DNA from: Eubacteriales bacterium
GTDB lineage: Bacteria; Bacillota; Clostridia; Oscillospirales; CAG-272
Assembly (NCBI GenBank): GCA_045643285.1
Contig: JAZUKN010000014.1
Location: 7,772 to 71,771, forward strand
DNA length: 64,000 nucleotides
Direction: 5' to 3'
The notes beneath the pieces were generated by a model. The model worked only from the letters and a program-made list of their open reading frames with translations, was not told the origin of the DNA and did not search any database. The stretch's first letter is position 1. Each line of letters begins with the position of its first letter. Shown piece after piece: positions 398 to 63,430 of this stretch. The translations under genes and the position numbers were made by a program.

Positions 398-461
398 AGG
401 GATGCCTTTCTGATTTTTTGTCTTTATAATTGCAATATTTTATATTTAGAAAGATTGTTCA

Positions 462-806
462 CACGGCTACGCACGTAACCACATTTTTTTACCGTAGGGG
501 AGGGGTTTCCCCTCCCGCCGGATTTGCACAAACTCCACGGATTCCAACCACACGAACGATTCAACAAGCCGCCCTCTTTGAGGGAGGGGGACCGCTTGCG
601 GTGGAAGGAGAGAAAAATCTACGCTTTTGCGGCAAAAGGTAGAAAACACTTCGTGTTTTCAAATTGATTGCCACTGCGCGTGGGGCGCACAAGAAGACCG
701 ACGCGGCCTTCTTGTGAATCATCCCGCCAAAGGGGGAAGGGCTTCGCATTCCCCCTTTGGAATCCCCTTTGCTACAGAGTAACTGCAAGATTTTTGTTTG
801 CTTTGT
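462..806. repeat. Mosaic hairpin repeat, copy 1 (head hairpin at 492-520; tail abuts the hisZ stop codon)
   Basis: Module order on the + strand: cacggctacgcacg...; ccgtaggggaggggtttcccctcccgccggatttgcaca; aaaaggtagaaaacacttcgtgttttc (642-660); ccactgcgcgtggggcgcacaaga..tcttgtgaatca; ccaaagggggaagg..ccccctttgg; cccctttgctacagag; ..ctttgtctaattattc. Confidence 0.85.
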
Positions 807-810
807 CTAA

Positions 811-1896
811 TTATTCATCATTCATTATTTCTTTTCTTCTCGTCCGAATTGCCGCGGACTTTGCGCCGGATTCGCTGATTGCCGTGACGCTTTCACCGCC
901 CGCGCGTATCTTTTCGACTGCCGCCGACACTTTTTCCGGTGCCGCGCCGTCCGGATAGACGAGCAGAACGTCCGCGTCGTACTCGCGCTTCACGCCGAAA
1001 AACATATCAAGCGTATCGAGGTACACCGCAAAGCCGACTGCTCCGGACGTGCGTCCCATTTTCTTCATAAGCGAGTCGTACTGACCGCCCGAGAGAACGG
1101 ACGACGGTATCCCCTCGACAAAACCGCGGAACACAAATCCGTTGTAGTAGTGTATGTCGCCCGTGACCGAGAAATCGAGCGTGATCTTTCTGTTATCTTC
1201 GAGGGACGACAGCACTGTCCGAAAGTCGCCGAGCGTTTTTTCACTGACAACGCCGGTGAGCATTTTTGTGACGTCTTCAAGTACGTCTGCTACCGCGCCG
1301 TTTACCTTGACGAGCGAGCGTAGGACGGTGGATTTCTCTTCACCGATGCGCGCGAAAACAGGTGCAAGCTCGTGCAGATTCTTTTCTCCGATGCAGTGCA
1401 GGACTGTCGGTTTTTCACTGTCCGTAATGCCGCAGTAGCGAAGCACCTCCGACAGCACGCCGAGATGCGACACCGCGAGAACGTTCGACGGGCTTATCAC
1501 GTTGAGGGATTCGGACGCGAGCCGCATGACTTCGTAGATGCGGTATGCGTCAATGTCGCCGATGCACTCAAGTCCCACCTGCATAAGCTCGCGGAAATTG
1601 CGGCTTCCGCGGTCGACACGGTACACGTTTTCGTTGTAGTAGAGCTTTTTCAGTCCGTCGCCGTCGCGTGTGTTCTTGACGATCGAAAGCGTTACGTCCG
1701 GCTTGAGTGCGAGCAGCTTTCCCGAGCCGTCCGTGAACGTGATAACGCTGTCCGAGACGAGAAAATCCTTGTGCCGCGCGTAGAGATCGTACTCCTCGAA
1801 TTTGTTCATTTTGTACCGCGAATATCCGTACTGCCCGTAAAGCGAACGGAGCGAATAAAGTATGGATTCGCCGTAATCTTCCGTCGTGCGCGTCAT
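811..1896 (-). CDS. hisZ: ATP phosphoribosyltransferase regulatory subunit HisZ (HisRS paralog)
   Basis: ORF 811..1962 has a HisRS-like sequence (MTRTTEDYGESILYSLRSLYGQYGYSRYKMNKFEEYDLY...). Start moved to ATG 1896, which forms an ATGA overlap with the stop of the upstream yerC-like gene. Confidence 0.8.
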   Translation of the reverse strand: MTRTTEDYGESILYSLRSLYGQYGYSRYKMNKFEEYDLYARHKDFLVSDSVITFTDGSGKLLALKPDVTLSIVKNTRDGDGLKKLYYNENVYRVDRGSRNFRELMQVGLECIGDIDAYRIYEVMRLASESLNVISPSNVLAVSHLGVLSEVLRYCGITDSEKPTVLHCIGEKNLHELAPVFARIGEEKSTVLRSLVKVNGAVADVLEDVTKMLTGVVSEKTLGDFRTVLSSLEDNRKITLDFSVTGDIHYYNGFVFRGFVEGIPSSVLSGGQYDSLMKKMGRTSGAVGFAVYLDTLDMFFGVKREYDADVLLVYPDGAAPEKVSAAVEKIRAGGESVTAISESGAKSAAIRTRRKEIMNDE

Positions 1897-2186
1897 GATT
1901 TTCCGTCCTTTCTGAGCTTTTCGATAGCGGTTTTGTAGCCGCCGTCGCCGTAGTTCAGGCATTTGTTGACGCGCGAGATCGTTGCGGACGATATCGAGAC
2001 TTCGTCGGCGATCTTCTGGTAGCTCTCGCCGTCGTAGAGCCGTTCAGCCGCTTCAAGCCGCTGTGCCATGTCCTTGATCTCCTTTATCGTGCAGAGATCC
2101 TCGAAGAATTTGTAGCACTCCTCGACGGAGTCCATTTTTACTATAGCGTCCATCAGTCTGTCGGTGGACTCGGTATGAAAAGTCAT
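1893..2186 (-). CDS. YerC/YecD-family TrpR-like DNA-binding protein
   Basis: 97 aa. C-terminal HTH SYQKIADEVSISSATISRVNKCLNYGDGGY is typical of this family. First gene of the his transcription unit. Confidence 0.7.
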   Translation of the reverse strand: MTFHTESTDRLMDAIVKMDSVEECYKFFEDLCTIKEIKDMAQRLEAAERLYDGESYQKIADEVSISSATISRVNKCLNYGDGGYKTAIEKLRKDGKS

Positions 2187-14940: not shown

Positions 14941-15314
14941 GCAGTACGAAAAAGCTGATGGAATCCGGGCAGATGTATCTTGAAACGATCCTTGTGCTGA
15001 CCGAAAAGAACGGTCAGGTGCGCTCGATAGACGTGTGCGACGAAATGGGCTACTCGAAGCCGTCGGTCAGCCGCGCAGTGTCGAAATTGAAGACGGACGG
15101 ATATATAACAGTCGACGGCGGCGGATATATCACGCTGACGGATAGCGGACGGACGGTAGCCGAGAAAATATACGAGCGGCATACGGTGCTGACGGAGTTT
15201 ATCGCACGGCTTGGAGTCTCACGCGAAACGGCGGCAGAGGACGCGTGCAAGATCGAACACGACATAAGCGACGAGACTTTTGAAGCGATGAAAAAACACG
15301 TCAAATTGAAGTAA
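14937..15314 (+). CDS. DtxR/MntR family metal-dependent transcriptional regulator
   Basis: 125 aa. MYLETILVL...IDVCDEMGYSKPSVSRAVSKLKTDGYI...ERHTVLTEFI. Its ATG overlaps the TetR stop (ATGA at 14937-14940). Confidence 0.8.
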   Translation: MSSTKKLMESGQMYLETILVLTEKNGQVRSIDVCDEMGYSKPSVSRAVSKLKTDGYITVDGGGYITLTDSGRTVAEKIYERHTVLTEFIARLGVSRETAAEDACKIEHDISDETFEAMKKHVKLK

Positions 15315-15640
15315 GAAGTAATAGTGAATAGGGAAGAAGTAGACAAAGTGAGCGAAAATATTGCATTTTCTTTGTAACAAAGGGGTTCAACCGAGATGCG
15401 GAGCATCTCGACGACTTCGTTTACGAAGTCGGTAGGCGTGAATTGGACGAAGTCCCTTCCCCCTAAGCGCGGTGATTCACAAGAGCGTCGCGGTACGCTC
15501 TTGTGCGCCGTCCGCGTAGGACATCCCACGAACCCAAACGTTAGGTTTGGATAAATTCTGCGGCAGGAGTAAACCCCTGCCCTACAGATGCGGAATGTTA
15601 TATCGTGCGAATCCGTGAGATTTGTGCAAGTTAAAGAAAA
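15306..15640. repeat. Mosaic hairpin repeat, copy 2 (tail overlaps the DtxR-like gene stop; head ends at 15587)
   Basis: Starts ttgaagtaagaagtaatagtgaatag..gaagtagacaaag. Continues ctttgtaacaaagggg, gagatgcggagcatctc, gacttcgtttacgaagtc, gtgattcacaagagcg..cgctcttgtgcgcc, aacccaaacgttaggtttgg, cggcaggagtaaacccctgccctacag. Confidence 0.85.
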
Positions 15641-15720
15641 GTGAAGTATGCGCTTCGCGCAAGTGAAGTTGCCAAAGGCAGTGAAGTTACGCTTCGCGTA
15701 GTGAAGTTTGCGCTTCGCGC
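15641..15720 (+). repeat. Mini-hairpin array A: 4 units of ~20 nt (constant GTGAAGT spacer plus variable triloop palindrome)
   Basis: gtgaagta-tgcgcttcgcgca / agtgaagt-tgccaaaggca / gtgaagtt-acgcttcgcgt / agtgaagttt-gcgcttcgcgc. Ends 25 nt before the activase gene start. Confidence 0.85.
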
Positions 15721-15747
15721 AAGTTTTGGAAAGGAGACACACCCGTG

Positions 15748-24970: not shown

Positions 24971-25927
24971 TCAGAACGTTACGACTTCTTCTTCGGGTGC
25001 GGTTGCCGGGGCGAGAGACAGTACCTCAAGTGCCGCCAGCTTTCCGCCCGGTTCTTCGCCGTAGATCGACGCATCGACCGACACGACCTTCGCCTTGACG
25101 TAATACCACGCCTTATTCTTGAACGTCATATTGTTCTTGACGTAAATGCTGATGAACTGGATATCGTTCGCACAGCAGGTCATCGCAAAGCGTCCGATAA
25201 GGAATCCGTTTGCGGCGACTGCGCTGATCTGTGCCGCCTGCGCGCGCATCGTCACCGTTTTGCCTTCGTACTTGTCCACGTTATCCATTACGTCAAAGTA
25301 GAACACTCCGAAATCCGCGTCGCTGACGTCTATCTCGTCTTTTGTGAGGTCGAACGGGGAAGCGTCGAACTGAGCGTCCATTGTGCCGTCCTCGTATTCG
25401 TATACGACCTGCACGCGCATATTCACTGCCTTTACCAGACTGCGGTACGCCATTTTCTTCGAGTCGTCCGTAAAACGGTTGAAGATCACTATATCCGAAT
25501 TGCGGAACTGCTCAACGAGCATCGCGCGGAGGTTCTTTGAATAAGCATCGAACGTGGTCGAATCGACGGTCGTCATGATTTCGACGAGCTGCCACCCATC
25601 CGGATATACTATCTCAAGCGGCGCGTTTCCGTCCCACATTCCGTTGTATTCTATCGCCACGATGTCGGGCGCGTATTTCCGCTCAATGTCTTCGTACAGC
25701 GCGGAATTAAAGTCTTCTTCATCCTCGACGGACACGAGCGTGACGTTTTTTTCGCGGAGATTTTTTTCGTCGTATTCTTCGATACCCTCTTCGCAGACGA
25801 TCAGCACGATCTTTCTGCCGCCGCAGATCTGTCTGTTCTCGAAAAAGCGGTTTACCATTACGGTTTTGCCGGATTCAAGCAGTCCGTTGAAGAGGAAAAC
25901 GGGTACTTCTCTCGGTTGTTTTTTCAT
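24971..25927 (-). CDS. G3E/CobW-like P-loop domain lacking the CxCC motif, fused to a DUF1980 (TIGR03943)-like C-terminal domain
   Basis: 318 aa. Walker A FNGLLESGKT, DIVAIEYNG and FNRFTD resemble CobW G-motifs, with no GCxCC. The C-terminal half contains GRFAMTCCANDIQF, the CC-x-x-D hallmark I recall from DUF1980 proteins. Lies 21 nt downstream of the cobW-like gene. Confidence 0.55.
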   Translation of the reverse strand: MKKQPREVPVFLFNGLLESGKTVMVNRFFENRQICGGRKIVLIVCEEGIEEYDEKNLREKNVTLVSVEDEEDFNSALYEDIERKYAPDIVAIEYNGMWDGNAPLEIVYPDGWQLVEIMTTVDSTTFDAYSKNLRAMLVEQFRNSDIVIFNRFTDDSKKMAYRSLVKAVNMRVQVVYEYEDGTMDAQFDASPFDLTKDEIDVSDADFGVFYFDVMDNVDKYEGKTVTMRAQAAQISAVAANGFLIGRFAMTCCANDIQFISIYVKNNMTFKNKAWYYVKAKVVSVDASIYGEEPGGKLAALEVLSLAPATAPEEEVVTF

Positions 25928-25948: not shown

Positions 25949-27070
25949 TTACAGTCCGAACAGCTCGCAGAGAGCGTGCTCGTCGAGCTTTGTGCCGATG
26001 ACGCAGAGTCGTCCCGTGTAGTCTGCGGAGCCGTCGCGGATCTCGTATTCGCCGGGCGTGAGGTCGAACTGGAGCCACTTGCCGTCCGTTGTTTCGACGA
26101 TGCCCTTTGCGCGGATGATCACGCCGACGGGGTTTTCTTCCGCCGCGAGGACGGAGAGTGCCTTGTCGAGTGCATCGCGGTCGAACTTCTTCGGGGTTTC
26201 CTTGCCCCAGTTCGTGAAGATTTCGTCCGCGTCGTGACCGTGGTGGTGATGATGGTGGTGATGATGCTCGTGGTGGTGTTCGTCATCATCGTCGTCGTCA
26301 TGGTGGTGGCAGTGGCATTCGTGTTCGTCATCGTCGTCATCATCGTGGTGATGGTGGTGATGATGTTCATGCTCTTCGCCTTCTTCGTCGTGGTGGTGAC
26401 AGCAGCAATCGTCGTCATCATCGTCATCGTGATGAGCGGCGGCTATTGCGGCAAGAAGCTCGGCGGCGAGGGAGTCCTGCTTTTCCATGGCGGTACGCAT
26501 TACGTCGCCGGAGATCTCGTCCCACGGAGTCGTGATGATCGCCGCCTTCGGGTTGTGTTCCTTGATGAGTGCGACTACTGCTTCGAGCTTGTCGTCGGTG
26601 AGCTTTTGTGTGCGGCTCAAAATGATACAGCCGGCGTTTTCGATCTGGTCATTGAAGAATTCGCCGAAGTTCTTCATATACATTTTCGCTTTTGTCGCGT
26701 CGACGACTGCCGTAAAGCTCGACAGTACGGCTTTTCCGTCGGTGTCTGCGCCCTGGGCGGCGTGGATGACGTCGGAGAGCTTGCCGACTCCTGACGGCTC
26801 AATGATGATTCTGTCGGGAGAATATTTTGCGACGACTTCGGCGAGTGCTTCGCGGAAATCGCCTACAAGGGAACAGCAGATACAGCCGGAATTGATCTCG
26901 GACACTTCAATTCCGGCATCTTTCATGAATCCGCCGTCGATGCCTATTTCGCCGAATTCGTTCTCGACGAGGACGAGTTTTTCGCCTGAATAACTTTCGG
27001 CGATGAGTTTTTTGATGAGAGTTGTTTTTCCGGCTCCGAGGAATCCGGAAATGATGTCTATTTTTGTCAT
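25949..27070 (-). CDS. COG0523/CobW-family metallochaperone GTPase with a ~70-aa His/Asp/Cys-rich insert
   Basis: ORF 25949..27259. Start moved to ATG 27070 (GGAGG RBS; MTKIDIISGFLGAGKTTLI). GCICC metal motif. Insert AAHHDDDDDDDCCCHHHDEEGEEHEHHHHHHHDDDDDDEHECHCHHHDDDDDDEHHHEHHHHHHHHHGHD, followed by a CobW_C-like end. Confidence 0.85.
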   Translation of the reverse strand: MTKIDIISGFLGAGKTTLIKKLIAESYSGEKLVLVENEFGEIGIDGGFMKDAGIEVSEINSGCICCSLVGDFREALAEVVAKYSPDRIIIEPSGVGKLSDVIHAAQGADTDGKAVLSSFTAVVDATKAKMYMKNFGEFFNDQIENAGCIILSRTQKLTDDKLEAVVALIKEHNPKAAIITTPWDEISGDVMRTAMEKQDSLAAELLAAIAAAHHDDDDDDDCCCHHHDEEGEEHEHHHHHHHDDDDDDEHECHCHHHDDDDDDEHHHEHHHHHHHHHGHDADEIFTNWGKETPKKFDRDALDKALSVLAAEENPVGVIIRAKGIVETTDGKWLQFDLTPGEYEIRDGSADYTGRLCVIGTKLDEHALCELFGL

Positions 27071-27131
27071 GGTTACGCCTCCGTAAAACCGAAACGGTCT
27101 TTTCTTTTGATGAAAATATTTTAACTTATAC

Positions 27132-27160
27132 ATTCTATCACAAAATGTAAGGAAATGCAA
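27132..27160 (-). promoter_or_regulatory. Promoter TTGCAT-17-TAGAAT with extended -10 TG (COG0523 gene pair)
   Basis: Minus strand reads ttgcatttccttacattttgtgatagaat, between the STAS terminator and the cobW-like start. Confidence 0.55.
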
Positions 27161-27200
27161 GGATTTGGGAAAGAAAACGCCGTGGAGTTTTCCTTTTCCG

Positions 27201-27227
27201 CAAAATAAAAAGCGCAAACGCGCTTCT
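27201..27227 (-). terminator. Intrinsic terminator closing the NRPS/PP2C-kinase/STAS operon
   Basis: Minus strand, right after the STAS TAA: aagcgc-gttt-gcgctt followed by tttattttg. Short 6-bp GC-rich stem. Confidence 0.5.
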
Positions 27228-27530
27228 TTATTTTTCCGTGATAATGATTTTTTTGTCAAGTCCCGTCAGACGGAAGATACTTGCGATCTCCGTACCGGCG
27301 TTCACCACCGAAAACCATGCGCCGATCTCTTTCGCTTTTCTGTGGCACGCCACGACCTGTCTCAGTCCCGACGACGCTATGTACTCGACTTTGTCAAAAT
27401 CAAGCACTATCGACTTCGCTTCTTCGATCGCGTCGATCTCTTTTCCAAGCTCCGGCGACGATGCCGTATCGAGCCAGCCGTCAAGCGCGAGAGTGATCTT
27501 TCCGTCTTCGTTTGTCTTTGTGATCGTCAT
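27228..27530 (-). CDS. STAS-domain anti-sigma-factor antagonist (RsbV/SpoIIAA-like)
   Basis: 100 aa. LDFDKVEYIASSGLRQVV carries the conserved phosphorylatable Ser context. The ATG overlaps the stop of the upstream phosphatase/kinase gene (ATGA 27527-27530). Confidence 0.8.
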   Translation of the reverse strand: MTITKTNEDGKITLALDGWLDTASSPELGKEIDAIEEAKSIVLDFDKVEYIASSGLRQVVACHRKAKEIGAWFSVVNAGTEIASIFRLTGLDKKIIITEK

Positions 27531-29515
27531 TTTCTGTCACCTCCGAGATATTTTATCATTGTTAAAATGTTTTTGCCGTTCGTGTATTCGTAGTTGATCT
27601 CGTCGACCGCCGAGAACGCGATGAACCGCCCAAGACCGCCCATTTGAACGTCCGGATCGTAGTCCCCTGCTCCGACTCCTTCGCGCGGATCAAACTCTTT
27701 TCCGCCGTCCTCAAAGCGCATCAGTATCCTGTCGGACACCGCGAGACGGAAGCTGATCTTTTCTTTCTCCGCGTCTTTATCTTTGAACGCATACGACACG
27801 ATATTGACGAAGCATTCCTCCGCCGCGAGACACAGCTCAAGCTGTTTCTGTCTCGGAAGCGGAAGCGAAAGTATCGCATCCTTGATTTTATCAAACTCGC
27901 TCTGTTCCACGTCGAGTGACAGTTCCGTCGTGTCCTTTACGGTAAGCGAGAGCATCGTTATGTCGTCGTGCTGTTCACTGCCGTCCGCGAACTCATCGAG
28001 GGCATGGCTGACGTATCCGACAATATCTGGCGCGTGAGACGGGCGGAACGACGAAAGCAGCTCTTCGAGCCGTTTTTCGCCGAAGAAGTGCTTCTCGCTG
28101 TCGGTAGCCTCGGTCACTCCGTCGGTGTAGAGAAGCAGTGTTTCTCCCATTGAGAGCTGCTCGACTGCCGATGTGTATTCCTCTCCCTCAAATAAACCGA
28201 GGATCACTCCGTTTGCCTCAGAAAGAGTGCGGACGTTTTCACCCACGACATAGGGAAGATTGTGTCCGGCGTTCGAGTAGGTGAGCGTCTTCGTGCGGCT
28301 GTCGTAAATGCCGACGAACGCCGTAACGAACAGCATTTCCGTATTGTTTGCGGCAAGCGCGGAGTTCGTTTTTTCGAGTATCTCGTCCGGAGGAAGATTC
28401 ATTTTCGCATACTGATGAATGAGCGTCAGCGTCACCGCCATGAAGATCGACGCGGCGATACCCTTTCCCGACACATCGGCTATCACGGTCAGCACGCGGT
28501 TTTCGTCAAGCGGAACGTAGTCGTATAGGTCGCCTGCGACTTCGTTTGCCGGCTTCATCATCGCCGACAGCTCGTACCGCTCGTATATCGGCCTGCCCGT
28601 CGGCAAAAAACCCTTTTGGATGTTCGCGGCGACATCAAGCTCCGTTTCGCGTCTTTCGCTTTCACGGGTGAGCGCTTCGATATTCCGAAGATAGCTGCCG
28701 ATGTTGTCGCTCATAGTGCCGAACGCATCAGCTATCATTGCAAATTCATCACTTTCGGTTCCGGCAAGCGAGATTTTTTCGCTCTTTCCTCCGGCAGCGA
28801 AGCTCGTCATCGCCTTGCTGAGTTTCTTCGCAGGTACGGATACCTGTCCGCGGATGACGAAATACATACTGATGCCCACGGCGGCGATCACGGCGGCGAG
28901 TGCCAGACCGATGATCAGAAAATACCTGTTTATCTCTCTGTATATTTCGATATTGTCAACGTCCACGCCGACAGATACACGGTTACCGTAGGAATCCTCA
29001 ATGATCGTTTCGGTTATCAGCTCGTGACCGAAAAGCGACTTCGTGACGATATGCGAGAACTGCTTCTTGCCCATCCATAAATTAAGCTCTTCGGTCGTGT
29101 AATTGTTTTCCTTCACAAGACCGACAAAGTGATCGGGGTATTTTTCCTCCATTTCGGGATCTTTGTACGCCGCGCAAACATACTGAAATACGCCTCTATC
29201 CGGGTACGGCACCAGCACGAATGCGTAGTCGATATCGAACCACTCGCACATGAATTCACCGTAAGTCAGCGCGAGATCGTGGTATTCGGGCAAGATCGGC
29301 ATTCCTGCCGTCTCATATTCGCCCTTGATTATGTCGGAGTACATCGTGACAAGCTGTTCGGACGTTTTTTCGGTCTTTCGGCGGATTATGGTCGACACTC
29401 CGAAGTACGACGCGGCAAGAAGCACCGCAAGTGCAGAGAGCAGGATAAGCACAGCCCTCTGCGACACACGCGCGGCTATGGAATTATAGTGTTTTTTCTT
29501 ACTTCCGTCTTTCAT
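27527..29515 (-). CDS. Membrane sensor with HAMP, PP2C (SpoIIE/RsbU-type) phosphatase and RsbW/SpoIIAB-type HATPase kinase domains
   Basis: ORF 27527..29608. Start moved to ATG 29515 (MKDGSKKKHYNS...), which overlaps the NRPS stop. Two TM segments flank a ~190-aa outside domain, then a HAMP-like linker. PP2C core: AANIQKGFLP...AGDLYDY...VIADVSGKGIAASIFM...LLLYTDGVTEA. C-terminal HATPase: AAEECFVNIVSYAF, FEDGGKEFDP, GGLGRFIAFSAVDE. Confidence 0.8.
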   Translation of the reverse strand: MKDGSKKKHYNSIAARVSQRAVLILLSALAVLLAASYFGVSTIIRRKTEKTSEQLVTMYSDIIKGEYETAGMPILPEYHDLALTYGEFMCEWFDIDYAFVLVPYPDRGVFQYVCAAYKDPEMEEKYPDHFVGLVKENNYTTEELNLWMGKKQFSHIVTKSLFGHELITETIIEDSYGNRVSVGVDVDNIEIYREINRYFLIIGLALAAVIAAVGISMYFVIRGQVSVPAKKLSKAMTSFAAGGKSEKISLAGTESDEFAMIADAFGTMSDNIGSYLRNIEALTRESERRETELDVAANIQKGFLPTGRPIYERYELSAMMKPANEVAGDLYDYVPLDENRVLTVIADVSGKGIAASIFMAVTLTLIHQYAKMNLPPDEILEKTNSALAANNTEMLFVTAFVGIYDSRTKTLTYSNAGHNLPYVVGENVRTLSEANGVILGLFEGEEYTSAVEQLSMGETLLLYTDGVTEATDSEKHFFGEKRLEELLSSFRPSHAPDIVGYVSHALDEFADGSEQHDDITMLSLTVKDTTELSLDVEQSEFDKIKDAILSLPLPRQKQLELCLAAEECFVNIVSYAFKDKDAEKEKISFRLAVSDRILMRFEDGGKEFDPREGVGAGDYDPDVQMGGLGRFIAFSAVDEINYEYTNGKNILTMIKYLGGDRK

Positions 29516-32500
29516 TGTTCGTCTCCGAGTTCGTTTATATCGAAATAATCGAGCGTCATTATGCTGTTTATCGCGCGGTCGAGGTATGCGTCGTCGACGA
29601 GCGGCCACGAGAAACCTATCCTGTACAGCACGTTCGTCGTGAAGCGGTTGTCACAGTCGACGGCGTGCGCGTCCTTTATGTCGTATGCCGCAAGTCCGCC
29701 GAGCTTTGCGTTAAATCTGTCGTCGCCGAGCTTTTTACGGAATTCGTCGTAGTATACGTCGTCCTGTTCGGCGATTATCGTGATACCGTTGCGGTTGCAG
29801 GCATCGATGATCTTCATTTCGTCAAATCCGTAGCGGTTGTCGGCGTTGAACGCGGTGAAGCGGTCGTCCACTCCTGCGAGAAGCACGACGGCTCTTGCTG
29901 TGCAGTCGACGGGTGAGAAGCGCATCGGGTCCGTCATGTGGCTGATCGGGTACTTGCCCATTACGGAAAATCCACGGATGCCGGAGAGAAACATATTCGT
30001 CTCAAGGTTTGCCTGGAATTCGCCGTCCCTGTGCCGTCCCATGAGGTTGCCGACTCTTATTACCCGGCCTCTCATACCTCTTTCTATTGCTTCGAACATA
30101 CAAAGCTCCGCATTGTACTTTGAGATAGCGTATTTGTTGTCCATGTCGTCGATCACGAACAGCTCGTTTTCGTGCATTCTTATCTGCTTTTCGTAGCTTT
30201 CGACTGTGTGGATTCCGGGAACGGACACCGTCGAGATCTGCACGAGGCGCGCACCTCTCTTTTCGCAGATCGAAATGAGGTTCTTCACGCCGCCGACGTT
30301 GATCCGTTTAAGAATATCGCTGTCGGAGAAATGCTTTACGCACGCCGCGCAGTTGATAACCGTGTCAAACGGTACGTCGGCGAGTGTATCTCCGAGAGAA
30401 GAATCCGTTATATCGGCTTCGATGAGCGTTATCCTGTCTCTGAGCGCGTCTTCAAATGCGTCGGAGAAGTAGTAGATGAGCATTGTCTTCAGTCTGGCGA
30501 GCGGACTGTCGTATTCCCCTCTGCGGACAAGGCAGTAAATATGTCCTTTTTCGGATTTTATGAGTTCTTCGAGAACGTGTATGCCGAGGAATCCGACCGC
30601 ACCCGTGAGAAGCACGTTTCCGAGCGGCTCTCTCTTCACGTCCGCCGCATATTTTACGGTATTGTATTTCAGTGCGTCGCGCGTCTTTGAAGAGATATTG
30701 CCGTCGGCGGAATCGTCGTCCTGTTTTGCTTTTTTCGCCTTGCCGTCGCGCTCTTCGATGAATCCGGCGAGCATTTCGGGAGTCGGATTGTCGAAAATAT
30801 CGCCGTACTTCACGTCTATCCCGTCGGACATCAGCATCATCGTGACCTTTGACGCGGACAGCGACGTACCGCCGTTCTCGAAGAAGTTGTCGTCGGCGTA
30901 TACTTCGTCAAGCGAAAGGACGGACGAGAATATCTCGCAGAGTCTTTCTTCAAGCGATTTCTTCGCGGCGCGTCTGCCCCTCTTGTCGGCGGATTTCTTT
31001 TTGATGTTCGCAGTTTCCGGAAGTGCTTTTTTGTCGATTTTTCCGTTAGGAGTAAGCGGAATGGCATCAAGCTGCATTATGACAGCCGGCACCATATAGT
31101 ATGTGAGCCGTTCTTTCAGATGCTCCGTGAGCGCGTCGATGTCAGTCGGCTCGGAGGCAGTGAAGAACGCCGCGAGGTAGTCTTCTCCGCCGTTGTTGCG
31201 GACGACGACTTTAGCCTGCTTGACTGTGCCGAAAGAGCAAATCACCTTTTCGATCTCGTCAAGCTCTACTCTGAATCCGCGGAGCTTGACCTGGTTGTCG
31301 AGCCGTCCGGAGAATTCTATTTCCGCGTCTCGGTTCACTCTGACGAGGTCGCCGCTGTGGTACGCCCTCAGTCCGCGAAGCTCGGTAAACGCCGCGGCAG
31401 TCTTTTCGGGCAGCTTCACGTACCCTCGCCCGACTCCTTCTCCGCATATCATAAGCTCACCGGATGCGTACGGCGGAAGTATGTTGCCGTCGGTGTCGGT
31501 CACATAGAATCGGACGTTGCCGGTAGGTCTGCCGATAGTGATACCGTTTCCGGAGTGAAGCTCCTTCATTGAACAGCAAATCGAAGTTTCCGTCGGGCCG
31601 TAACCGTTTACTATCTGTAATTCGGATGAGGTCTTCTTCAGCGAATCGTAAAGCGACGGCGGGAACGCTTCCGCACCGGATACTATCGTTGTAAGTCCGC
31701 GTATCGCCTCTTCAAATTCCTTTACGCTTATCGCGTTGTTGAGGAACGACGGAGTGCAGGTCATAAAGCGGACGTCGTTGTCTTTCATCAACTTTGCGAG
31801 TGCTATCGGGTTGTGTATTTCGTCCTCCGTCGCCATGACGACAGTCTTTCCGCGGTACAGAGCGAGATAAATCTCATACAGCGACATATCGAACGAGATC
31901 GAGCTTACGGCGAGCGACGCACCGCCATCTTTTCCGTCGGTGAAGAATCGGAGGACGAGCTGATCGGTCTCGACGAAGTTCGAGAAGTTCCTGTGCTCGA
32001 TCATAACGCCCTTGGGAGTTCCCGTAGAGCCGGAGGTATAGATGCAGTAAGCGAGCGCGTCCGGCTGAACGTCGACATTCGGGTTCTCGCGGTTGTTGTT
32101 TTCGAGCAGTTCTTCAACGGTCAGCGTTCTGTACGGCTTTGTGTCGGCGAATAGATCGGGTTTTGCGGCTTTGATATTCTCCGTCGTGATGACGAATTTC
32201 GCCGACGCATTCGTGAGGCAGTAGTCTATTCTTTCGTCGGGATAGGACGGTAGCATCGGTAAGAACGCGCCGCCGGATTTTTGCAGACCTATCTCGCATA
32301 TCATGACTTCCTTTGTCCGCTCCAGCACAAGTCCGACTATATCGTCTTTGACGACGCCGAGAGAAACAAGCGAATTTGCGACGGCGTTCGCCTGACTGTT
32401 CAGTTCCCCGAACGTCAGTGATTCGCCTGCGGCGACAACGGCTGTTCTGTCGGGATGAAGAGCGGCTTGTTCTTTGATCACACGGTGTACTCTCTTGCCT

Positions 32501-45483: not shown

Positions 45484-47418
45484 TCAAAAGCTCTCTTCTT
45501 CCTCGTAAAGCTGCATCAGGCGGTCTTCGGCGATCGTCTTTCTGTCGCTAAGCTCGGCGGCGCGCATATAGTCCGTTGCGGCTTCACCGAACAGAAGATA
45601 ATCTATATCCGCGATCTCCTTTTCGAGCTTTTCGATCTCTTTTGCGACGTCTGCCTTGTGCTTCTCGAATTTACGCTTGTCCGCGTTCGCTTTTTTCCGC
45701 TCAAGGTATTCGTCCCGTCCGCTCGGCTCTTCTTTCGTCTCCGTCTCACCGACAGGCGCTTTTCCGCGGTTTTCCTTGTATGCGGAATACTCCTCGTACG
45801 TCCCCGGAAAATCCTTTCCGCCGTCGCCGAGGTCGATGAATCTCGTCGCAAGCCTGCTCACGAAATATCGGTCGTGCGACACCGCGATTATCGTCCCGTC
45901 GAACGCAAGCAGTGCGCTTTCCAGTGCCTCGCGCGATTCTATATCAAGGTGGTTCGTCGGCTCGTCGAGGATAAGAAGATTCATTTTCGAGAGTATCAGC
46001 TTTGCAAGCGTCAGCCTCGCTCTTTCGCCGCCCGACAGCACGCGGACTTCTTTTTCGATGTCCTCACCGCGGAACATAAAGAGCGCGAGCGTGTTCCGTA
46101 TCTCCGTCTGCGAGAGATTCGGGTACGTGTTCCACAACTCGTCGAGGACGGTGTTCGACTCCGTGAGATTCTGGTTTTCCTGATCGTAGTAGCCGACAGT
46201 CACGTTGTAGCCGAACTCTATTTCTCCGCTGAGCGGCTCAAGCTGACCGAGCAGGATTTTTATGAGCGTCGATTTGCCGCACCCGTTCGGACCGGTGATG
46301 AACAGTCTGTCATGCTTTTTCACGAGGAACGACAGATCACGGAACAGCATATCCGACGTAAAGCCCATCGTCAGCCTTTTCACCGTTGCGACATCGTTTC
46401 CGCTCTCGCCGGACGATTCAAGCCCGAACCGTATCGCTTTCGGTGCTGCTTTCGGTTTTTCGACCTTTTCCATTCGGGCTATCGCTTTTTCGCGGCTTTC
46501 GGCGGCAATGATGTTGCGCTCTCTGTTCCAGCGTCTCTGCTGTTCGATGTACGCCTCAAGACGTGCGATTTCTTTCTGCTGAAGGTCGTACTGTTTCTCC
46601 TGCTCACGGCGGAATTTCTCTTTTTCCGTGACGTATTCGCTATATCTACATTTGTAGAGCTTTGCTCTGCCGTTTTCGATGTCGAGCGTCTTGTTTGTGA
46701 CCTTGTCGAGAAAATAACGGTCGTGCGAGACGAGTATCACGGTCTTCGATTTCGGGTATGCCGCGAGATGATTTTCAAGCCAGCGCATCGTGTCAATATC
46801 AAGGTGGTTCGTCGGCTCGTCGAGGATGAGTATGTCGGGTTCCCTTGAGAGAAGCCGCGCGAGCGCGAGCCTTGTACGCTGTCCGCCGCTCATTTTCGAG
46901 ACAGGAGTCGACCACGTTTCCTCACCGAAGCCGAGATTTTCGAGGATACTGCGGCAACGGGACTTGTAGTACAGTCCGCCATCGGAGATGAAGCGGTTAT
47001 TGAGGTTTGTATACTCTGTAGAAAGGCGCGAAAGTGTCGCCGTGTCGTCCGGGGACGCTGAATCGAGCGCGGACTGAAGCTCGGCAAGACGCACTTCGGC
47101 GCGACAAAGCTCGGCGAATACCGCGTACATCTGACCGAGGACTGTTTCGTCAACGGACGCACAAGAGTCGCCGAGATTTATGATATTGAAAGCGTCGTCC
47201 TGGTGGAGCATACCGACAGATTTGTCGCGCGCGATATACACTTCTCCCTCGTCGGGCGTGTATTCGCCGGTTATCATGCGGAGCAGTGTCGATTTTCCGC
47301 TTCCGTTGACGCCGACGAGCGCGAGTCTGTCGCCGTCCTCGATCGAGAACGAGACTCCGCCGATTATCTCCCGCGTCCCCACACGGAAAGCGAGATCTTT
47401 CGTCGATAGTGAGATCAT
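45484..47418 (-). CDS. ABC-F family ATPase (two NBDs, no TMD; translation-factor/ribosome-protection type)
   Basis: 644 aa. GVNGSGKST and GPNGCGKST Walker A motifs, two LSGG signatures, and a charged C-terminal coiled extension. Confidence 0.85.
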   Translation of the reverse strand: MISLSTKDLAFRVGTREIIGGVSFSIEDGDRLALVGVNGSGKSTLLRMITGEYTPDEGEVYIARDKSVGMLHQDDAFNIINLGDSCASVDETVLGQMYAVFAELCRAEVRLAELQSALDSASPDDTATLSRLSTEYTNLNNRFISDGGLYYKSRCRSILENLGFGEETWSTPVSKMSGGQRTRLALARLLSREPDILILDEPTNHLDIDTMRWLENHLAAYPKSKTVILVSHDRYFLDKVTNKTLDIENGRAKLYKCRYSEYVTEKEKFRREQEKQYDLQQKEIARLEAYIEQQRRWNRERNIIAAESREKAIARMEKVEKPKAAPKAIRFGLESSGESGNDVATVKRLTMGFTSDMLFRDLSFLVKKHDRLFITGPNGCGKSTLIKILLGQLEPLSGEIEFGYNVTVGYYDQENQNLTESNTVLDELWNTYPNLSQTEIRNTLALFMFRGEDIEKEVRVLSGGERARLTLAKLILSKMNLLILDEPTNHLDIESREALESALLAFDGTIIAVSHDRYFVSRLATRFIDLGDGGKDFPGTYEEYSAYKENRGKAPVGETETKEEPSGRDEYLERKKANADKRKFEKHKADVAKEIEKLEKEIADIDYLLFGEAATDYMRAAELSDRKTIAEDRLMQLYEEEESF

Positions 47419-50805: not shown

Positions 50806-52899
50806 ATGCTTTACCCAAGACCGCTTAAATCAAAACTTACAAAAGAATTTCTCACCCTTGATAAGCTGACCGTTTCCGGTGCGTGCGCCGAAACTTTCGT
50901 TGCCGCCGCCGCTTTCCTCGGCTTTGACGCAAAGATCGTTTCGAGATGCCCGAAGATCACGCTTTCCACTGACGAAAACCTCGACGGACTTGACGCATAT
51001 ACCGTAAAAGTCGGCAAAAAAGTCGAACTGATCGGACGCGACGAAGACGCACTCGCACGAGGCGTGTGGACCGTCCTCGGACTCGTCGAAAAGGACGGCG
51101 ACACATATAAGATCCCGTGTGGTGAGGTCAATGACCGCGCGTATATGAAGATGCGCGGAGTTCACCTCTTCGTGCCGGCGGCAGATTCCGTCGAAGAATG
51201 TAAGCGCGTCATCGCAGAAGCGGCACGGCTCAAATATAACACCGTCATCCTCGAAACAGGCGGCGGCGTTGAATTCAAAAAGCACCCCGAAGTCAACCGC
51301 GCGTGGACGAAATTCTGCCGTGATGCACGAAACCACGTCGGCGGTCCGCAGGGACTTCAGGGCTCGCAGGCATATTGGAAAGACTCTACACATGTAGAAC
51401 TTTCCGGTGGCGGTTTTATCTCGCAGGAACAGCTCAGAGAGATCACCGACTACTGCCGTCTCCTCCGTTTGGAGCTTATCCCCGAAATACAGTCCCTCTC
51501 CCACGCATACTACCTCACACTTGCCGATAAGTCTATCGCCGAGCGCCCGTTTGAGGAGTGGCCCGACAGCTATTGCCCGTCGAATCCGAGATCGTACAAG
51601 CTCTACGAGGAGTGCGCCGAAGAGATCATCGACATAATCAAGCCGAAGCGAGTCTCTATCGGTCACGACGAAGTGCGTATTCTCGGCGAATGCCCGCTTT
51701 GCCGTAAAAAGAGCGGTTCCGAGCTTCTCGCAGGTGACATAAACAAGCTCCACAAATTCTATAAAAAGCACGGCATACAGATCATGATGTGGGGTGAAAA
51801 ACTCCAGGATTTCATGAACTTCAAGGGTTGGCGCATGGGCGGTGTCAAGGAAGGTCCGTTCACCGACAGATACGGACGCGACTACATCCTCGATTCCACG
51901 AACGGCGCGCTTGATATGATCCCGAACGACGTTCTGATGCTCGACTGGTACTATTCATGGGGTTACGACACCGAAAAGGACTTCCTCGAACGCGGATTCT
52001 CCGAGATCTACGGCAACTTCCGCGGATCGCTTATCGCGGATTGGGACAAACGCTCGAAGATCGAGAATGTCGTCGGCGCGGAAGTGTCGACATGGTGTAT
52101 GCCCGACGAGCGCGAGATCGGTTACAACGGCTGGTTCTACGAGCTTGCGTTCTCGGCGGCTGTGCTGTGGCGTGACGATTTCTGCGACGCAAAGCGTGAC
52201 GAATGGTCAGACGAAGCTGAGGCAATGCAACCCGTACTGAGACGTGAGCTTCGCGGTTCCGACGACTACGACGGCACGTCAAAGGGACTTAAATCCCTCA
52301 CACTCGCAGACAAAGGCGACAAACAGGCAACACCTGCAAAAGTCCAGCCGTCCGTTGACAGATTCATCGCAAAGAAGATCGCCGACAACGCGCTCGGCGA
52401 GGCGACGGAGCTTGAAGTCGGAAAGAAAGCCGATTCGCTCGTCTTCTTCCACGCGGCAGACAACGCGCCGAAGGACGTTATCAAGACGTGGTACTTCCTC
52501 GATCCGGCACCGAGAATGCCGGCTTCGTATTCCGTCGATTACGAGGACGGGCTGACGATCCGTGTACCCGTGATGTTTCCTCAGATGATCGGCGTATACG
52601 ACTCGACGAGAGAGTTCACACGCCCCGTGGGTGACGAAAACGTGTCTCTCGACGTTGATGACACGAAGAAAGCAAAGGTCAACAACCTTTCTCCGATGTT
52701 CGCGCAGAAGGACGTTTGGCGTGCGACGGCTCTGTATTTCTGCCGCGGGATCGCGCTTGATACAGACGACGGCGAGAAGACCGTGTACGCATACGAATGG
52801 AAGAATCCGAGACCGGAACATAAGATACTCCGCGTCCGCGTGATCGACGAGGGGTGTTCAAAGATGAACGTGCATCTCTACGGCGTCGGAACGGTTTGA
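50806..52899 (+). CDS. GH20-like glycoside hydrolase (beta-N-acetylhexosaminidase family) with extra C-terminal domains
   Basis: 697 aa. GH20b-like N-domain, RGVHLFVP...LKYNTVILE TIM-barrel start, and SIGHDEV resembling the GH20 D-E catalytic pair. GGAGGG RBS. Confidence 0.55.
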   Translation: MLYPRPLKSKLTKEFLTLDKLTVSGACAETFVAAAAFLGFDAKIVSRCPKITLSTDENLDGLDAYTVKVGKKVELIGRDEDALARGVWTVLGLVEKDGDTYKIPCGEVNDRAYMKMRGVHLFVPAADSVEECKRVIAEAARLKYNTVILETGGGVEFKKHPEVNRAWTKFCRDARNHVGGPQGLQGSQAYWKDSTHVELSGGGFISQEQLREITDYCRLLRLELIPEIQSLSHAYYLTLADKSIAERPFEEWPDSYCPSNPRSYKLYEECAEEIIDIIKPKRVSIGHDEVRILGECPLCRKKSGSELLAGDINKLHKFYKKHGIQIMMWGEKLQDFMNFKGWRMGGVKEGPFTDRYGRDYILDSTNGALDMIPNDVLMLDWYYSWGYDTEKDFLERGFSEIYGNFRGSLIADWDKRSKIENVVGAEVSTWCMPDEREIGYNGWFYELAFSAAVLWRDDFCDAKRDEWSDEAEAMQPVLRRELRGSDDYDGTSKGLKSLTLADKGDKQATPAKVQPSVDRFIAKKIADNALGEATELEVGKKADSLVFFHAADNAPKDVIKTWYFLDPAPRMPASYSVDYEDGLTIRVPVMFPQMIGVYDSTREFTRPVGDENVSLDVDDTKKAKVNNLSPMFAQKDVWRATALYFCRGIALDTDDGEKTVYAYEWKNPRPEHKILRVRVIDEGCSKMNVHLYGVGTV

Positions 52900-53387
52900 A
52901 GTAAGAAGTAATAGTGAAGAAGTAGACAAAGTTATGATTGCCTGCGGCAAACGATGATGCTGACGCAGTGATGATACGCTACGCGTAACGATGATTGCGC
53001 TCCGCGCAAGTTTCTTTGATTTTGCACACATAAACGTATGAGCGGCAGCGCGCTGTTACCTCACGGGTTAAATCCTCTTCACTGTCGCACTCGCTTTGTG
53101 ACAAAGGGGAGTCCAACCGAGATGCAAAGCATCTCGACGACTTCGTTTACGAAGTCGGTAGGCGTGAATGTGCTTGCACCTTCCCCCTTTGGCGGGTAGA
53201 TTGACAAGAAGTACGCGAAAGTGATTCACCGAGATGCGAAGCAGCTCGTCGGTTTCGACGAAGTCGAATACCGGCTTGTCCGCCGTCCGCCGCGTATTTC
53301 ATACGCAGGACAAAAACGAACCCAAACGTAAGGTTTGGATTAATTCGGCGGCAGGAGCAACGCGTATACATACGCACTGTCCTACAG
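52895..53387. repeat. Mosaic hairpin repeat, copy 7 (tail overlaps the GH20-like gene stop; head ends at 53387)
   Basis: Starts ttgaagtaagaagtaatagtgaagaagtagacaaag. Then array B, the gagcggcagcgcgctgtta..aaatcctc module, ctttgtgacaaagggg, gagatgcaaagcatctc, gacttcgtttacgaagtc, gtccgccgtccgccgcgtatttcatacgcaggac, aacccaaacgtaaggtttgg, cggcaggagcaacgcgtatacatacgcactgtcctacag. Confidence 0.85.
52932..53008 (+). repeat. Mini-hairpin array B: 4 units (GATGAT-type spacer plus variable triloop palindrome)
   Basis: ttatgat-tgcctgcggca / aacgatgatg-ctgacgcag / tgatgat-acgctacgcgt / aacgatgat-tgcgctccgcgca. Confidence 0.85.
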
Positions 53388-53517
53388 TATAAAGAGATGA
53401 GGTTCGCGCGTAGCCGTGGGGGTTCACGAAATCCAGCGAGACGTCGAGGACGCCGTCCCATACGGTATAATGTAAAAAAATAAAATCTATTGCAATTATA
53501 AAGGAAAGGACAAAACC

Positions 53518-54831
53518 ATGACACAAAATTTCTCTTTCCCGAAAGAATTCCTCTGGGGATCCGCCACCGCCGCTCCGCAGATCGAGGGCGCGTGGAACGA
53601 AGACGGACGTACCCCGTCGATCTGGGACGTCGCACCGTCCGGCAAGATAAAGAACGACGATAACTGCCATACCGCGTGCGATCACTACCACCACATGAAA
53701 GAAGACGTGAAAATGCTCCACGATATGGGTATGAAGTCCTACCGCTTCTCCGTTTCGTGGTCGCGCGTCATCCCCGAAGAGGGAAAGATCAATAAAAAAG
53801 GACTCGCGTTCTACTCCGATCTTGTCGACGAGCTTCTGAAATACGGCATCACGCCGATAGTCACGCTGTACCACTGGGATCTGCCCGTGTGGGTTTATAA
53901 AAAAGGCGGCTGGCTCACGACTGCCATTGTGCCGCTGTTTGCCGAGTACACAAAGGTCGTTGTCGACACGCTCTCAGACAGAGTTACATATTGGTTGCCG
54001 ATGAATGAGCCGAACTGCTTTATCATGGACGGTCACGTCTCCGGTGTACACGCGCCGTTCAAGAAACGCCCGAAGGACGCAGGCAAGCTCACGCGCGTAT
54101 GCCTCCTCGCAAATGCGGAATCCGTAAAGACGATCCGCAAGTACGCGAAGACCGCGCCGAAAGTCGGTATCGCACTGTCCGCAGGCGCGTTTCTGCCGAA
54201 AGACAAGTCCGAAGAGGCGTATAAATACGCAGAGCACGAGTCGTTCTACGAGGGTATCGGCACGTTTGCGAATCGCTGGTGGGCTGATTCACTGCTGAAA
54301 GGCGAGCCGGTCACGTTCGGCGACTATTACACTGGTTCCCGCCTCTCAAAAATGAAAGTCGATCTCGATTTCATCGGACTGAATATATATCAGCCGTTCT
54401 ACGACGGGAGCTGGGGAGAGAAACAGGACAGCGACCTTACCGACGACGACCGCACTTCCATGGACTGGATAATCGACGGTAAAGTTATGTACTATACGCT
54501 GAAATTCTTCTACGCGCGGTACGGTCTGCCGCTTATGATTACCGAAAACGGTATGGCTGACAGCGACAAGGTCGAAAACGGCGCAGTCCACGACAAAAAG
54601 CGTATTGGCTTTATAAAGCAGTATCTCGCAGGAATGAAGCAGGCGATGAGCGAGGGAGTAGAGGTGCTCGGGTACCAGTATTGGTCGCTTATGGATAACT
54701 TCGAGTGGGCGCAGGGCTACGGTCCGCGGTTCGGGCTTGTGCACGTCGACTACGAGACGGAGAAGCGTACGCTGAAGGACTCCGCGCTGTACTATAAAGA
54801 AGTGATCGAGAGTAACGGAAAAATAATCTGA
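53518..54831 (+). CDS. GH1 beta-glucosidase/6-phospho-beta-glycosidase family
   Basis: 437 aa. FLWGSATAAPQIEGA, TLYHWDLP, NEPN, ITENG. Confidence 0.9.
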   Translation: MTQNFSFPKEFLWGSATAAPQIEGAWNEDGRTPSIWDVAPSGKIKNDDNCHTACDHYHHMKEDVKMLHDMGMKSYRFSVSWSRVIPEEGKINKKGLAFYSDLVDELLKYGITPIVTLYHWDLPVWVYKKGGWLTTAIVPLFAEYTKVVVDTLSDRVTYWLPMNEPNCFIMDGHVSGVHAPFKKRPKDAGKLTRVCLLANAESVKTIRKYAKTAPKVGIALSAGAFLPKDKSEEAYKYAEHESFYEGIGTFANRWWADSLLKGEPVTFGDYYTGSRLSKMKVDLDFIGLNIYQPFYDGSWGEKQDSDLTDDDRTSMDWIIDGKVMYYTLKFFYARYGLPLMITENGMADSDKVENGAVHDKKRIGFIKQYLAGMKQAMSEGVEVLGYQYWSLMDNFEWAQGYGPRFGLVHVDYETEKRTLKDSALYYKEVIESNGKII

Positions 54832-54909
54832 CAAAGCAAAGATCCGTGCGGAAGAGAAAAAACCGCACGGATTTTTCTTTGGGGAAAGAAACAAACTTGT
54901 TTTTTCTGC

Positions 54910-55335: not shown

Positions 55336-55369
55336 GCGTAGTCACTAATAAATGATAAGTTACGCATAA

Positions 55370-55625: not shown

Positions 55626-55693
55626 TTTTCTCTAAAGAAAACCCTTTTTTCCACCCGGCGGAAATATTGCCGCCGAAAAATCTTCCCGATTTG

Positions 55694-55722: not shown

Positions 55723-55761
55723 TTATCCGTATAATGATAACAAAACCCTCCGGAGGATATT

Positions 55762-63162: not shown

Positions 63163-63248
63163 TAATGATGTTCTGCTTCGCAGAATGATGTTCACACTTC
63201 GTGTGAATGATATATTGCTTCGCAATATGATATAGTTGCCTGCGGCAA
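63162..63248 (+). repeat. Mini-hairpin array C: 4 units (AATGAT-type spacer plus variable triloop palindrome)
   Basis: taatgatgttc-tgcttcgca / gaatgatgttc-acacttcgtgt / gaatgatatat-tgcttcgca / atatgatatag-ttgcctgcggcaa. Follows the GNAT gene terminator. Confidence 0.85.
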
Positions 63249-63349
63249 ACATTGAGGAAGAAAAAACTCCACTGCGTTACGTTTTTTCAATTATTTGAAA
63301 AAATATCGAAGATATTTTTTCTTCAACAATTTTCGACGAAGTCGAAAAC

Positions 63350-63430
63350 ATCATATCGCAGAGCGATATATCATGCGGCGAAGCCGTATATCATTTGCGC
63401 GAAGCGCAAATATCATTCTCGCACAGCGAG
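63350..63430 (-). repeat. Mini-hairpin array D: 4 units, inverted copy of the array C type; abuts the stop of the lipid kinase gene
   Basis: + strand reads catcatat-cgcagagcg / atatatcat-gcggcgaagccg / tatatcattt-gcgcgaagcgc / aaatatcatt-ctcgcacagcgag. On the minus strand these are ATGAT spacers plus palindromes. Confidence 0.8.

Follow-up and report, generated by a model that had tools for sequence, protein, structure and literature searches.

Why do unrelated genes in one bacterial genome end in the same letters? The question arises from a 64,000-nt stretch of contig JAZUKN010000014.1 of an Eubacteriales bacterium (hereafter the window; loci in other assemblies are labelled L001-L134, and two proteins P0002 and P0003), in which a 22-mer, TTGAAGTAAGAAGTAATAGTGA, occurs exactly twice, at 15306-15327 and at 52896-52917, and in none of 100 shuffles. 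The first copy overlaps the end of a gene for a DtxR-like metal-dependent regulator, and the second the end of a gene for a GH20-like glycoside hydrolase. The original prediction, made from the letters alone, took the string to be the terminus of a mobile element that brings stop codons in all three frames to the 3' ends of genes. The shared string is indeed real and not a chance match, with its first copy where the prediction had placed it and the second at 52896 rather than 52895. We propose, with a probability of roughly 60%, that it belongs to a modular mobile or recombinogenic system of intergenic hairpin repeats whose gene-facing module is a stop-rich, single-stranded tract of heptads, the richness in stops being mainly a by-product.

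The heptad tract and the genes that end in it

Both copies of the 22-mer run on into gaagtagacaaag / GAAGTAGACAAAG, a continuation already seen in the prediction, and a further 13-mer is identical between them. Read in steps of seven bases, the tract is GAAGTAA GAAGTAA TAGTGAA (TAGGGAA) GAAGTAG ACAAAG, 36-43 nt in length; the two copies differ by a single heptad, the bracketed TAGGGAA, which is found only in copy 1. The tract is C-free and purine-rich, and a TAA, TAG or TGA is present in each heptad. Because the period is seven (7 mod 3 = 1), the stop-bearing unit shifts through the reading frames automatically. Predicted centroid folds leave copy 2 unpaired, and copy 1 as well except at its 3' end, and permissive Rfam scans of both spacers returned no match on the tract itself (15306-15350 and 52896-52931). 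The opposite strand of the window holds no further tract of this GAAGTAA type. A possible degenerate third copy lies 3' of the gene at 24971..25927, too diverged for a claim.

The DtxR-like open reading frame (ORF) enters copy 1 as ttg aag TAA and the GH20-like ORF enters copy 2 as gtt TGA, and the ORF ends agree with the claim that both genes stop inside the tract, in different frames. The third frame of copy 1 also closes where it had been said to, at the TAG that follows gaa gta aga agt aat agt gaa. Closure of every frame is, however, a property of copy 1, with its extra heptad, and not of copy 2, where the frame GAA GTA AGA AGT AAT AGT GAA GAA GTA GAC AAA is open across the tract and closes 19 codons on, within the adjoining hairpin array.

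Comparison with repeat-free relatives places the junction at the DtxR-like gene within its last codons. Twenty-five DtxR homologues terminate within a few residues of the window protein's end, and the closest repeat-free orthologues share its end column, P0002 (85% identical) ending in ...KKHVTGK and P0003 (77%) in ...KRAIKQR, against ...KKHVKLK in the window. In the repeat-free loci L004 and L005 the next gene lies 12-17 nt downstream. The nucleotides of the window gene and of L004 are highly identical up to CACGTCA and then agree at 5 of the last 11 positions, and ATTGAAGTAAG is a frequent left edge of the tract in unrelated genomes; for both reasons, the final Leu-Lys-stop of the window protein is probably derived from the tract, with the protein length unchanged. 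The DtxR of L133 is near-identical as far as residue 118. After ATGAAAAA its gene reads on as TAAAGTAATAGGTAAAAGTGAATAG and the protein ends in ...KNKVIGKSE, with eight residues and a TAG stop encoded by a diverged tract (...EAMKNKVIGKSE, then stop) and 17 nt of the native end gone. Judged by this alignment, the tract replaces the C-terminus of DtxR in a near-identical strain.

In the GH20-like protein, the terminal ...YGVGTV is kept to the last residue in orthologues down to about 50% identity. The orthologous genes end GTN TGA, and that of L128 reads gtcTGA, followed by an ordinary terminator. In L129 the gene ends gtaTAA, then come 17 nt and the start of a GH1 gene. Since the GH1-like gene of the window (53518..54831) is 85% identical to that of L129, the 618 nt that separate GH20 from GH1 in the window are an insertion.

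Such alignments also bear on whether the shared letters might be native gene sequence, or the chance result of two genes ending in similar purine-rich strings. The first four to six shared bases could indeed be native, given that L004 ends in the heptad-like AAAGTGA and the GH20 orthologues in GTN TGA, and repeat-free orthologues of both proteins end at the same position. The string downstream of that end is nevertheless lacking in the orthologues, the identity over the 22-mer and the 13-mer is expected zero times by chance, and in many genomes TTGAAGTAAG comes before the tract of unrelated elements, which leaves a native or chance origin next to no probability.

The hisZ-like gene, whose minus-strand end reads gaaTAAttagacaaag, had been named as a third gene that stops in the repeat. 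Its stop does lie within a repeat module, but this module is a second, AT-rich heptad tract and not a copy of the GAAGTAA tract. The HisZ tail, ...RTRRKEIMNDE, leaves its orthologues (...RYRRIIKLIEEG) precisely at the start of the AT-rich tract, and by this comparison looks tract-encoded, a replacement of the C-terminus. The 22-mer AATAATGAATGATGAATAATTA is found exactly both at the hisZ end and in L133, and the GAAGTAA-type tract, the hisZ end and L133 can be aligned collinearly, with heptads followed by TAG(A/G)CA(A/G)AG and then by a segment that we call module B. A fourth gene, encoding an ABC-F protein (45484..47418, minus strand), has its TGA stop at the start of an AT-rich tract. From these alignments, heptad tracts of several sequence types seem interchangeable. 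At 860-905 of L133 a second heptad family, (AATGAAT)n, stands between the GAAGTAA-type tract and module B, a position from which it is absent in the window.

Several genes thus take their stop codon, TAA, TGA or TAG, from the tract, and the central observation of the original prediction, that unrelated genes stop inside a shared repeat module, holds. Its companion question, whether host C-termini have been truncated or replaced, has a less uniform answer: the DtxR-like and GH20-like proteins of the window are untruncated and end at the same column as their orthologues, and replacement is seen in the DtxR of L133 and in the HisZ tail.

Composite repeats and their turnover between strains

Modules occurring in both orientations are common to seven intergenic regions of the window. 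Among them are hairpins of the form GGTAGAAAAC...GTTTTC, which are REP-like (repetitive extragenic palindrome), carry GTAG and resemble terminators, together with small hairpin pairs and arrays of heptads with UUCG-type hairpins. The GGTAGAAAAC..GTTTTC hairpins show complementary stem changes both in the window and in L126. Features that define REPs and bacterial interspersed mosaic elements (BIMEs), namely imperfect palindromes with a conserved 5' GTAG, extragenic mosaics and both orientations, are found in the composites and not in the tract itself. The GAAGTAA tract is present in only two of the composites and is therefore a separate module rather than the end piece of the family.

Empty sites, which would betray insertion, are found in relatives, and the DtxR orthologues of L004 and L005 have no repeat. 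Besides the GH20-GH1 spacer described above, the hisZ-hisG spacer measures 4 nt in L130, and in L131 the two genes share 17 nt, with about 413 nt of repeat between them in the window; since the genes abut or overlap in these relatives, the window composite is an insertion. On this comparative evidence, composites have been inserted into very short operon spacers or at gene 3' ends. With ancestral spacers of 4-17 nt, a tolerated insertion had to abut the stop, and part of their nearness to stop codons follows from this constraint.

The interior of the composites has turned over between closely related strains. Three other assemblies with an identical DtxR (L001-L003) retain the gene-tract junction unchanged and differ in the inner modules and in the downstream gene, L002 having one hairpin unit where the window has four. 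In L134, where GH20 is 99% identical, the junction and the right end are kept, the tract has five heptads, module B replaces the Gut-1-like array and the spacer measures 402 nt against 618 nt in the window. Inner modules are therefore reshuffled among strains whose flanking proteins are 99-100% identical, and assembly artefacts do not account for the junctions, which are found again in independent assemblies. That the repeats are recombinogenic is clear, with modules passing between copies and strains and heptads varying in number and sequence. Together with the spacers inserted relative to related genomes, this reshuffling bears out the suggestion of a mobile or recombinogenic origin rather than passive duplication.

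Some of the hairpin arrays resemble a described RNA. At gathering score (50 bits), the sole Rfam match in the window is the Gut-1 RNA motif (RF01706), at 63346-63418, and two further arrays score below the threshold (Table 1). The linkers of Gut-1, GUGAAAU (here AGUGAAGU), and the units of the tract are heptads of one kind. The tract itself has linker-like heptads and no hairpins, and so lacks the three tetraloop hairpins with UGAAAU-type linkers that mark Gut-1. Tandem units of the hairpin arrays align out of register.

The 64 kb contain three Gut-1 copies, of which two form an inverted pair, in differing intergenic contexts and with a unit number that varies between strains. Gut-1 may be a dispersed repeat module rather than a single non-coding RNA gene.

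Table 1. Coordinates of the repeats, arrays, tracts and associated genes in the window
Feature	Position	Strand	Remarks
DtxR-like metal-dependent regulator gene, 125 aa	14937..15314	+	Pfam Fe_dep_repress; last 2-3 codons and stop within tract
Heptad tract copy 1, TT GAAGTAA GAAGTAA TAGTGAA TAGGGAA GAAGTAG ACAAAG	15306..15348	+	holds DtxR-like stop TAA, 15312-15314
Composite repeat, DtxR-like gene to radical-SAM gene	15315..15744	+	order: tract, module B, hairpin modules, Gut-1-like array
Array of four heptad-plus-hairpin units, linker AGUGAAGU	15639..15712	+	Rfam Gut-1 42.3 bits, below gathering score 50
GH20-like glycoside hydrolase gene, 697 aa	50806..52899	+	Pfam Glyco_hydro_20; C-terminus ...YGVGTV at native position
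Heptad tract copy 2	52896..52931	+	one heptad fewer; holds GH20-like stop TGA, 52897-52899
Composite repeat inserted between GH20-like and GH1-like genes	52900..53517	+	17 nt in L129
Hairpin array directly 3' of tract copy 2, GAUGAU linkers	52934..53010	+	74% identical to 15638-15726 array; no Rfam match
Composite repeat inserted between hisZ and hisG	398..810	-	4 nt in L130; overlap 17 nt in L131
AT-rich heptad tract (AATGAAT/GATGAAT type) and TAGACAAAG junction	801..836	-	appears to encode HisZ tail KEIMNDE and stop TAA
hisZ-like gene, ATP phosphoribosyltransferase regulatory subunit	811..1962	-	stop TAA, 811-813
Second AT-rich heptad tract, TGAAAGAGTAATGAATAATGAAATAATAA	45458..45486	-	begins at TGA of ABC-F gene; terminator-like hairpin next
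Gut-1-like hairpin array	63163..63238	+	48.8 bits
Gut-1 RNA motif copy	63343..63418	-	53.4 and 58.4 bits, above gathering score

Further repeats were observed around these genes. The spacer at 54832-55761, which separates the GH1-like gene from a gene for an FAD oxidoreductase, forms a nested palindrome whose arms, 55112-55173 and 55493-55554, are 98% complementary; its outer arms of about 100 nt bear the GGTAGAAAAC hairpin, and it resembles a complete member of the composite family, similar to a miniature inverted-repeat transposable element (MITE). Both hisG and GH1 have the string TTGCAATTATAAAG ahead of them. At the distal end of the same two composites, ATAAAAT.TATTGCAATTATAAAG is found at 422-447 (minus strand) and 53478-53503 (plus strand), 15-25 nt upstream of the hisG and GH1-like starts, and a consensus promoter scan made no call at this string. 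The idea of an outward promoter on the composites was dropped, as promoter and terminator scans of three spacers gave counts no higher than those in shuffles.

Genes flanking the repeats are ordinary housekeeping genes. Elsewhere in the window, a gene on the minus strand (29512-38481) encodes a non-ribosomal peptide synthetase of 2989 aa with three adenylation and two condensation domains and a terminal reductase, and its 3024-nt internal repeats correspond to the modules of the enzyme. A CobW-family GTPase gene (25949..27259, minus strand), adjoined by a second CobW-like gene (24971..25927), has a 12-nt periodic GTGATG/GTCGTC repeat at 26234-26430, which by its sequence probably encodes a His/Asp-rich metal-binding stretch.

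The tract in other genomes

A core 17-mer of the tract, GAAGTAAGAAGTAATAG, matched at least 120 stretches of GTDB genomes. Its carriers are mostly metagenome-assembled genomes (MAGs) of Acutalibacteraceae, Oscillospiraceae, 'Eubacteriales' or 'Clostridia', often with several matches per genome and at contig ends; a scan of viral contigs gave 7 matches. Three settings recur: the inner purine arm of elements of about 200 nt, positions after tRNA genes, and solo tracts after genes.

The elements of about 200 nt, which are multi-copy, have AT-rich terminal hairpins, TA flanks, a pyrimidine arm that matches the purine arm and a fold z-score of -7. Terminal inverted repeats are thus present in these elements of other MAGs and not at the window copies. 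In at least six independent insertions their left end, TAAACAAT..., coincides with the stop codon of the gene upstream, and in several the first bases, TAA, are themselves that stop. From end to end, the elements consist of TA, an AT-rich hairpin, purine heptads, a pair of GC hairpins, pyrimidine heptads, a second AT-rich hairpin and TA; carriers include L016, L023, L037, L061, L099 (MAG CAYVTA01), L010/L048 and L017/L019/L094/L120, with many copies at contig ends.

In the tRNA setting, a pyrimidine arm, a spacer and a purine arm stand directly 3' of a tRNA gene and its terminator, and variable genes come next. This tRNA-adjacent arrangement looks like an integration or island hot spot. The conserved succession observed after tRNA 3' ends is the terminator AAAAATCCCG..CGGGATTTTT, pyrimidine heptads, CGGGATTTTTGG, purine heptads, a TATGCTATAAT-like promoter and unrelated small genes, as in L020, L053, L055, L070, L085, L087, L103, L124, L011, L105 and others.

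The same heptad arrays raise the idea that the heptads are operator or centromere-like sites in DNA for a ribbon-helix-helix protein, after the manner of omega of plasmid pSM19035. Other MAGs do have direct and inverted heptad arrays just upstream of -35/-10-like sequences, and the complement of the tract, TTCACTA, resembles the omega consensus, WATCACW. The tract does not fit that consensus, however, and half of the heptads (TTACTTC) are without the core; the window copies lie downstream of genes, where no promoter was found; and the two arms co-vary as a palindrome (GGTAA/TTACC, GTGAA/TTCAC), which independent protein sites would not need. With neither consensus nor position fitting, we rejected the operator as highly improbable.

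Among the matches listed, 51 tracts have no partner arm upstream. A co-directional ORF of at least 120 aa ends between -400 and +40 of the tract in 35 of them and within 40 nt in 20, and in nine the stop lies in the tract or abuts it, the offset being 2 in four cases, 7 in two, and 0, 14 and 36 in one each. Two of the nine are the window copies and one (L007) is probably no real gene, which leaves at least six further genes that end in the module, as the prediction expected there to be; the remaining six include MnmA-, RelA/SpoT-, DnaX- and PfkA-like proteins, judged from their translations alone. The 'genes' ending in the tract of L056, L090, L092, L098 and L007 were set aside as spurious ORFs that read through the pyrimidine arm.

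Are these stops the purpose of the tract? One can picture an adapted, frame-independent stop cassette on a mobile element, able to land in gene 3' ends in any frame. Two frames are used in the window and the third in L133, and at least six genes of other MAGs stop in or against the tract. Moreover, among the matches listed, all three frames are closed in 44 of 62 distinct tracts from other genomes, compared with 44% of shuffles. As evidence of selection this excess is weak: the tracts have a common ancestry and were found with one search seed, which by itself closes two frames, so that they do not count as independent. One frame is open in copy 2 of the window and in the other 18 tracts (29%), and composition alone takes closure far: when the tract is shuffled at constant composition, 21-33% of the shuffles close all frames, compared with 1.4% of window 41-mers. 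The window proteins are untruncated, most tracts lie after a native stop and not across it, and many copies stand 3' of tRNA genes or hairpins with no ORF entering them. As a conserved property, the frame-independent cassette of the original prediction is thus not upheld (composition-matched shuffles close all frames in 21-44% overall), and we consider an adapted cassette doubtful.

The main rival to our reading is a role at the level of RNA, in which the heptads, with their GUGAA/GUAA cores, would be single-stranded binding sites for a protein, alone or between UUCG-type hairpins, acting like a sponge, on 3'-UTR (untranslated region) stability or in termination, with the stops incidental. To our knowledge, no protein binds these heptads, which counts against such a role. 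The Gut-1 consensus is three hairpins with GUGAAAU linkers, and the linker of the window arrays, AGUGAAGU, is a heptad that the tract has too; predicted folds leave the tract unpaired, and it is often placed after a stop codon and before a hairpin that resembles a terminator (L013, L050); the exact 17-mer is conserved over many genera; and Gut-1 has been rated 'certainly' RNA by its describers (PMC2864571). A transcribed function would, however, be expected to fix the sense strand, and among the 25 solo tracts that face gene 3' ends 14 are co-directional and 11 opposite; gene starts are rarely faced, by 4 and 3 tracts. In many genomes the tract pairs with the pyrimidine arm within a palindromic element, the same locus differs in module content between strains, and no Gut-1 match was found beside the tracts of nine other loci. 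We regard the RNA-level role as possible though unlikely. The placement of the solo tracts is the usual habitat of REP- and MITE-type repeats.

Origin, known relatives and significance

The reading of the tract as the gene-facing module of a mobile hairpin repeat can be put in mechanistic terms. An ORF that runs into the tract would usually close within a few codons, since every heptad has a stop and the period is seven. A stop in each heptad and fast closure would in turn make insertions or conversions that reach the last codons of a gene survivable. Purifying selection would retain only those insertions that spare an essential C-terminus, as in GH20, and replaced tails would be tolerated where the tail is variable, as in the DtxR of L133 and in HisZ. 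The stop-richness would be mainly an outcome of unit composition and period, not of a tuned cassette, and the unstructured tract may serve to space the hairpins of the element away from the terminating ribosome.

Several observations weigh against this reading. Neither a transposase nor a REP-associated tyrosine transposase (RAYT) was found among the approximately 20 window proteins scanned, no reverse-complement partner of the tract lies within 300 nt of either window copy, and no direct repeat or target-site duplication is recognisable at the window junctions. A scan of JGI (Joint Genome Institute) metagenomes for the window-specific tract gave 0 matches. The exact preservation of DtxR and GH20 length is not explained by random insertion, and may reflect microhomology with native Lys-stop and Val-TGA ends or a targeting of stop codons. 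Conservation of the 17-mer across bacterial families hints at a sequence-specific function. A bolder construction, which we hold to be improbable, would unite the heptad tract and the Gut-1-type arrays in one order-wide, self-propagating 3'-end cassette that targets stop codons, with the C-free heptads serving a dedicated enzyme, or an abundant RNA-binding protein, for recognition or priming, and with Gut-1 as its mobile tandem-hairpin module in place of a free-standing RNA gene.

Repeats that meddle with gene ends have precedents. In Coxiella, copies of QMITE1/2 cover the final 1-50 bp of functional genes and lengthen EnhC (PMC5896051); in enterobacteria, fusions of RU-1 to gene 3' ends remove stop codons (PMC2759123). 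Like these and other repeats of the RU-1/ERIC type (enterobacterial repetitive intergenic consensus), the repeats described here are short, non-coding, multi-copy, structured and 3' intergenic, overlap or replace the stop or tail, and have empty sites in relatives. Unlike MITEs, the window tract has no terminal inverted partner or visible target-site duplication, and the overlapping module consists of tandem heptads. We know of no parent transposase for heptad-tract repeats.

The composites share with REP/BIME and with pneumococcal BOX elements their build as mosaics of short hairpins in either orientation, their extragenic 3' position, a conserved 5' GTAG (here GGTAGAAAAC...GTTTTC) and complementary stem changes, and differ from them in sequence and in having, besides, heptad tracts and tandem heptad-and-hairpin arrays. 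A REP hairpin that lies within about 15 nt of a stop reportedly reduces expression of the upstream gene through ribosome stalling and transfer-messenger RNA (tmRNA), a finding attributed to Liang, Rudd and Deutscher in 2015. The present repeats are likewise structured and directly 3' of stops, a setting in which the distance from stop to hairpin matters; in contrast to the REP case, about 35-40 nt of tract, predicted to be unstructured, precede the first hairpin and would avoid the stalling effect.

Gut-1 has been described only from human gut metagenomes, as a free-standing non-coding RNA whose function is not known (Weinberg et al. 2010, PMC2864571). Arrays near the tracts resemble it in their scores (58.4, 48.8 and 42.3 bits) and in their heptad-type linkers; the tract differs in being free of hairpins and outside the model, and Gut-1 here behaves as a module of a dispersed repeat that varies in copy number. 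A full-text literature search for GAAGTAAGAAGTAA returned only unrelated primer and probe matches, and a broad keyword search (MITEs, stop codons, Clostridia) found no description of the heptad tract. The tract therefore seems undescribed, and what is new here is its order-wide occurrence and its tie to Gut-1. The principle is not new, since MITE-like repeats that run over gene 3' ends are already on record.

For the biology of these organisms, the finding means that small repeats sitting on stop codons reshape operons, here by splitting GH20 from GH1 and hisZ from hisG. Such repeats can rewrite the tails of proteins and cause breaks in metagenome assemblies. Across the gut bacteria of the Oscillospirales, the tract is a convenient marker of elements of this kind, and its link to Gut-1 gives an orphan RNA motif a genomic context.

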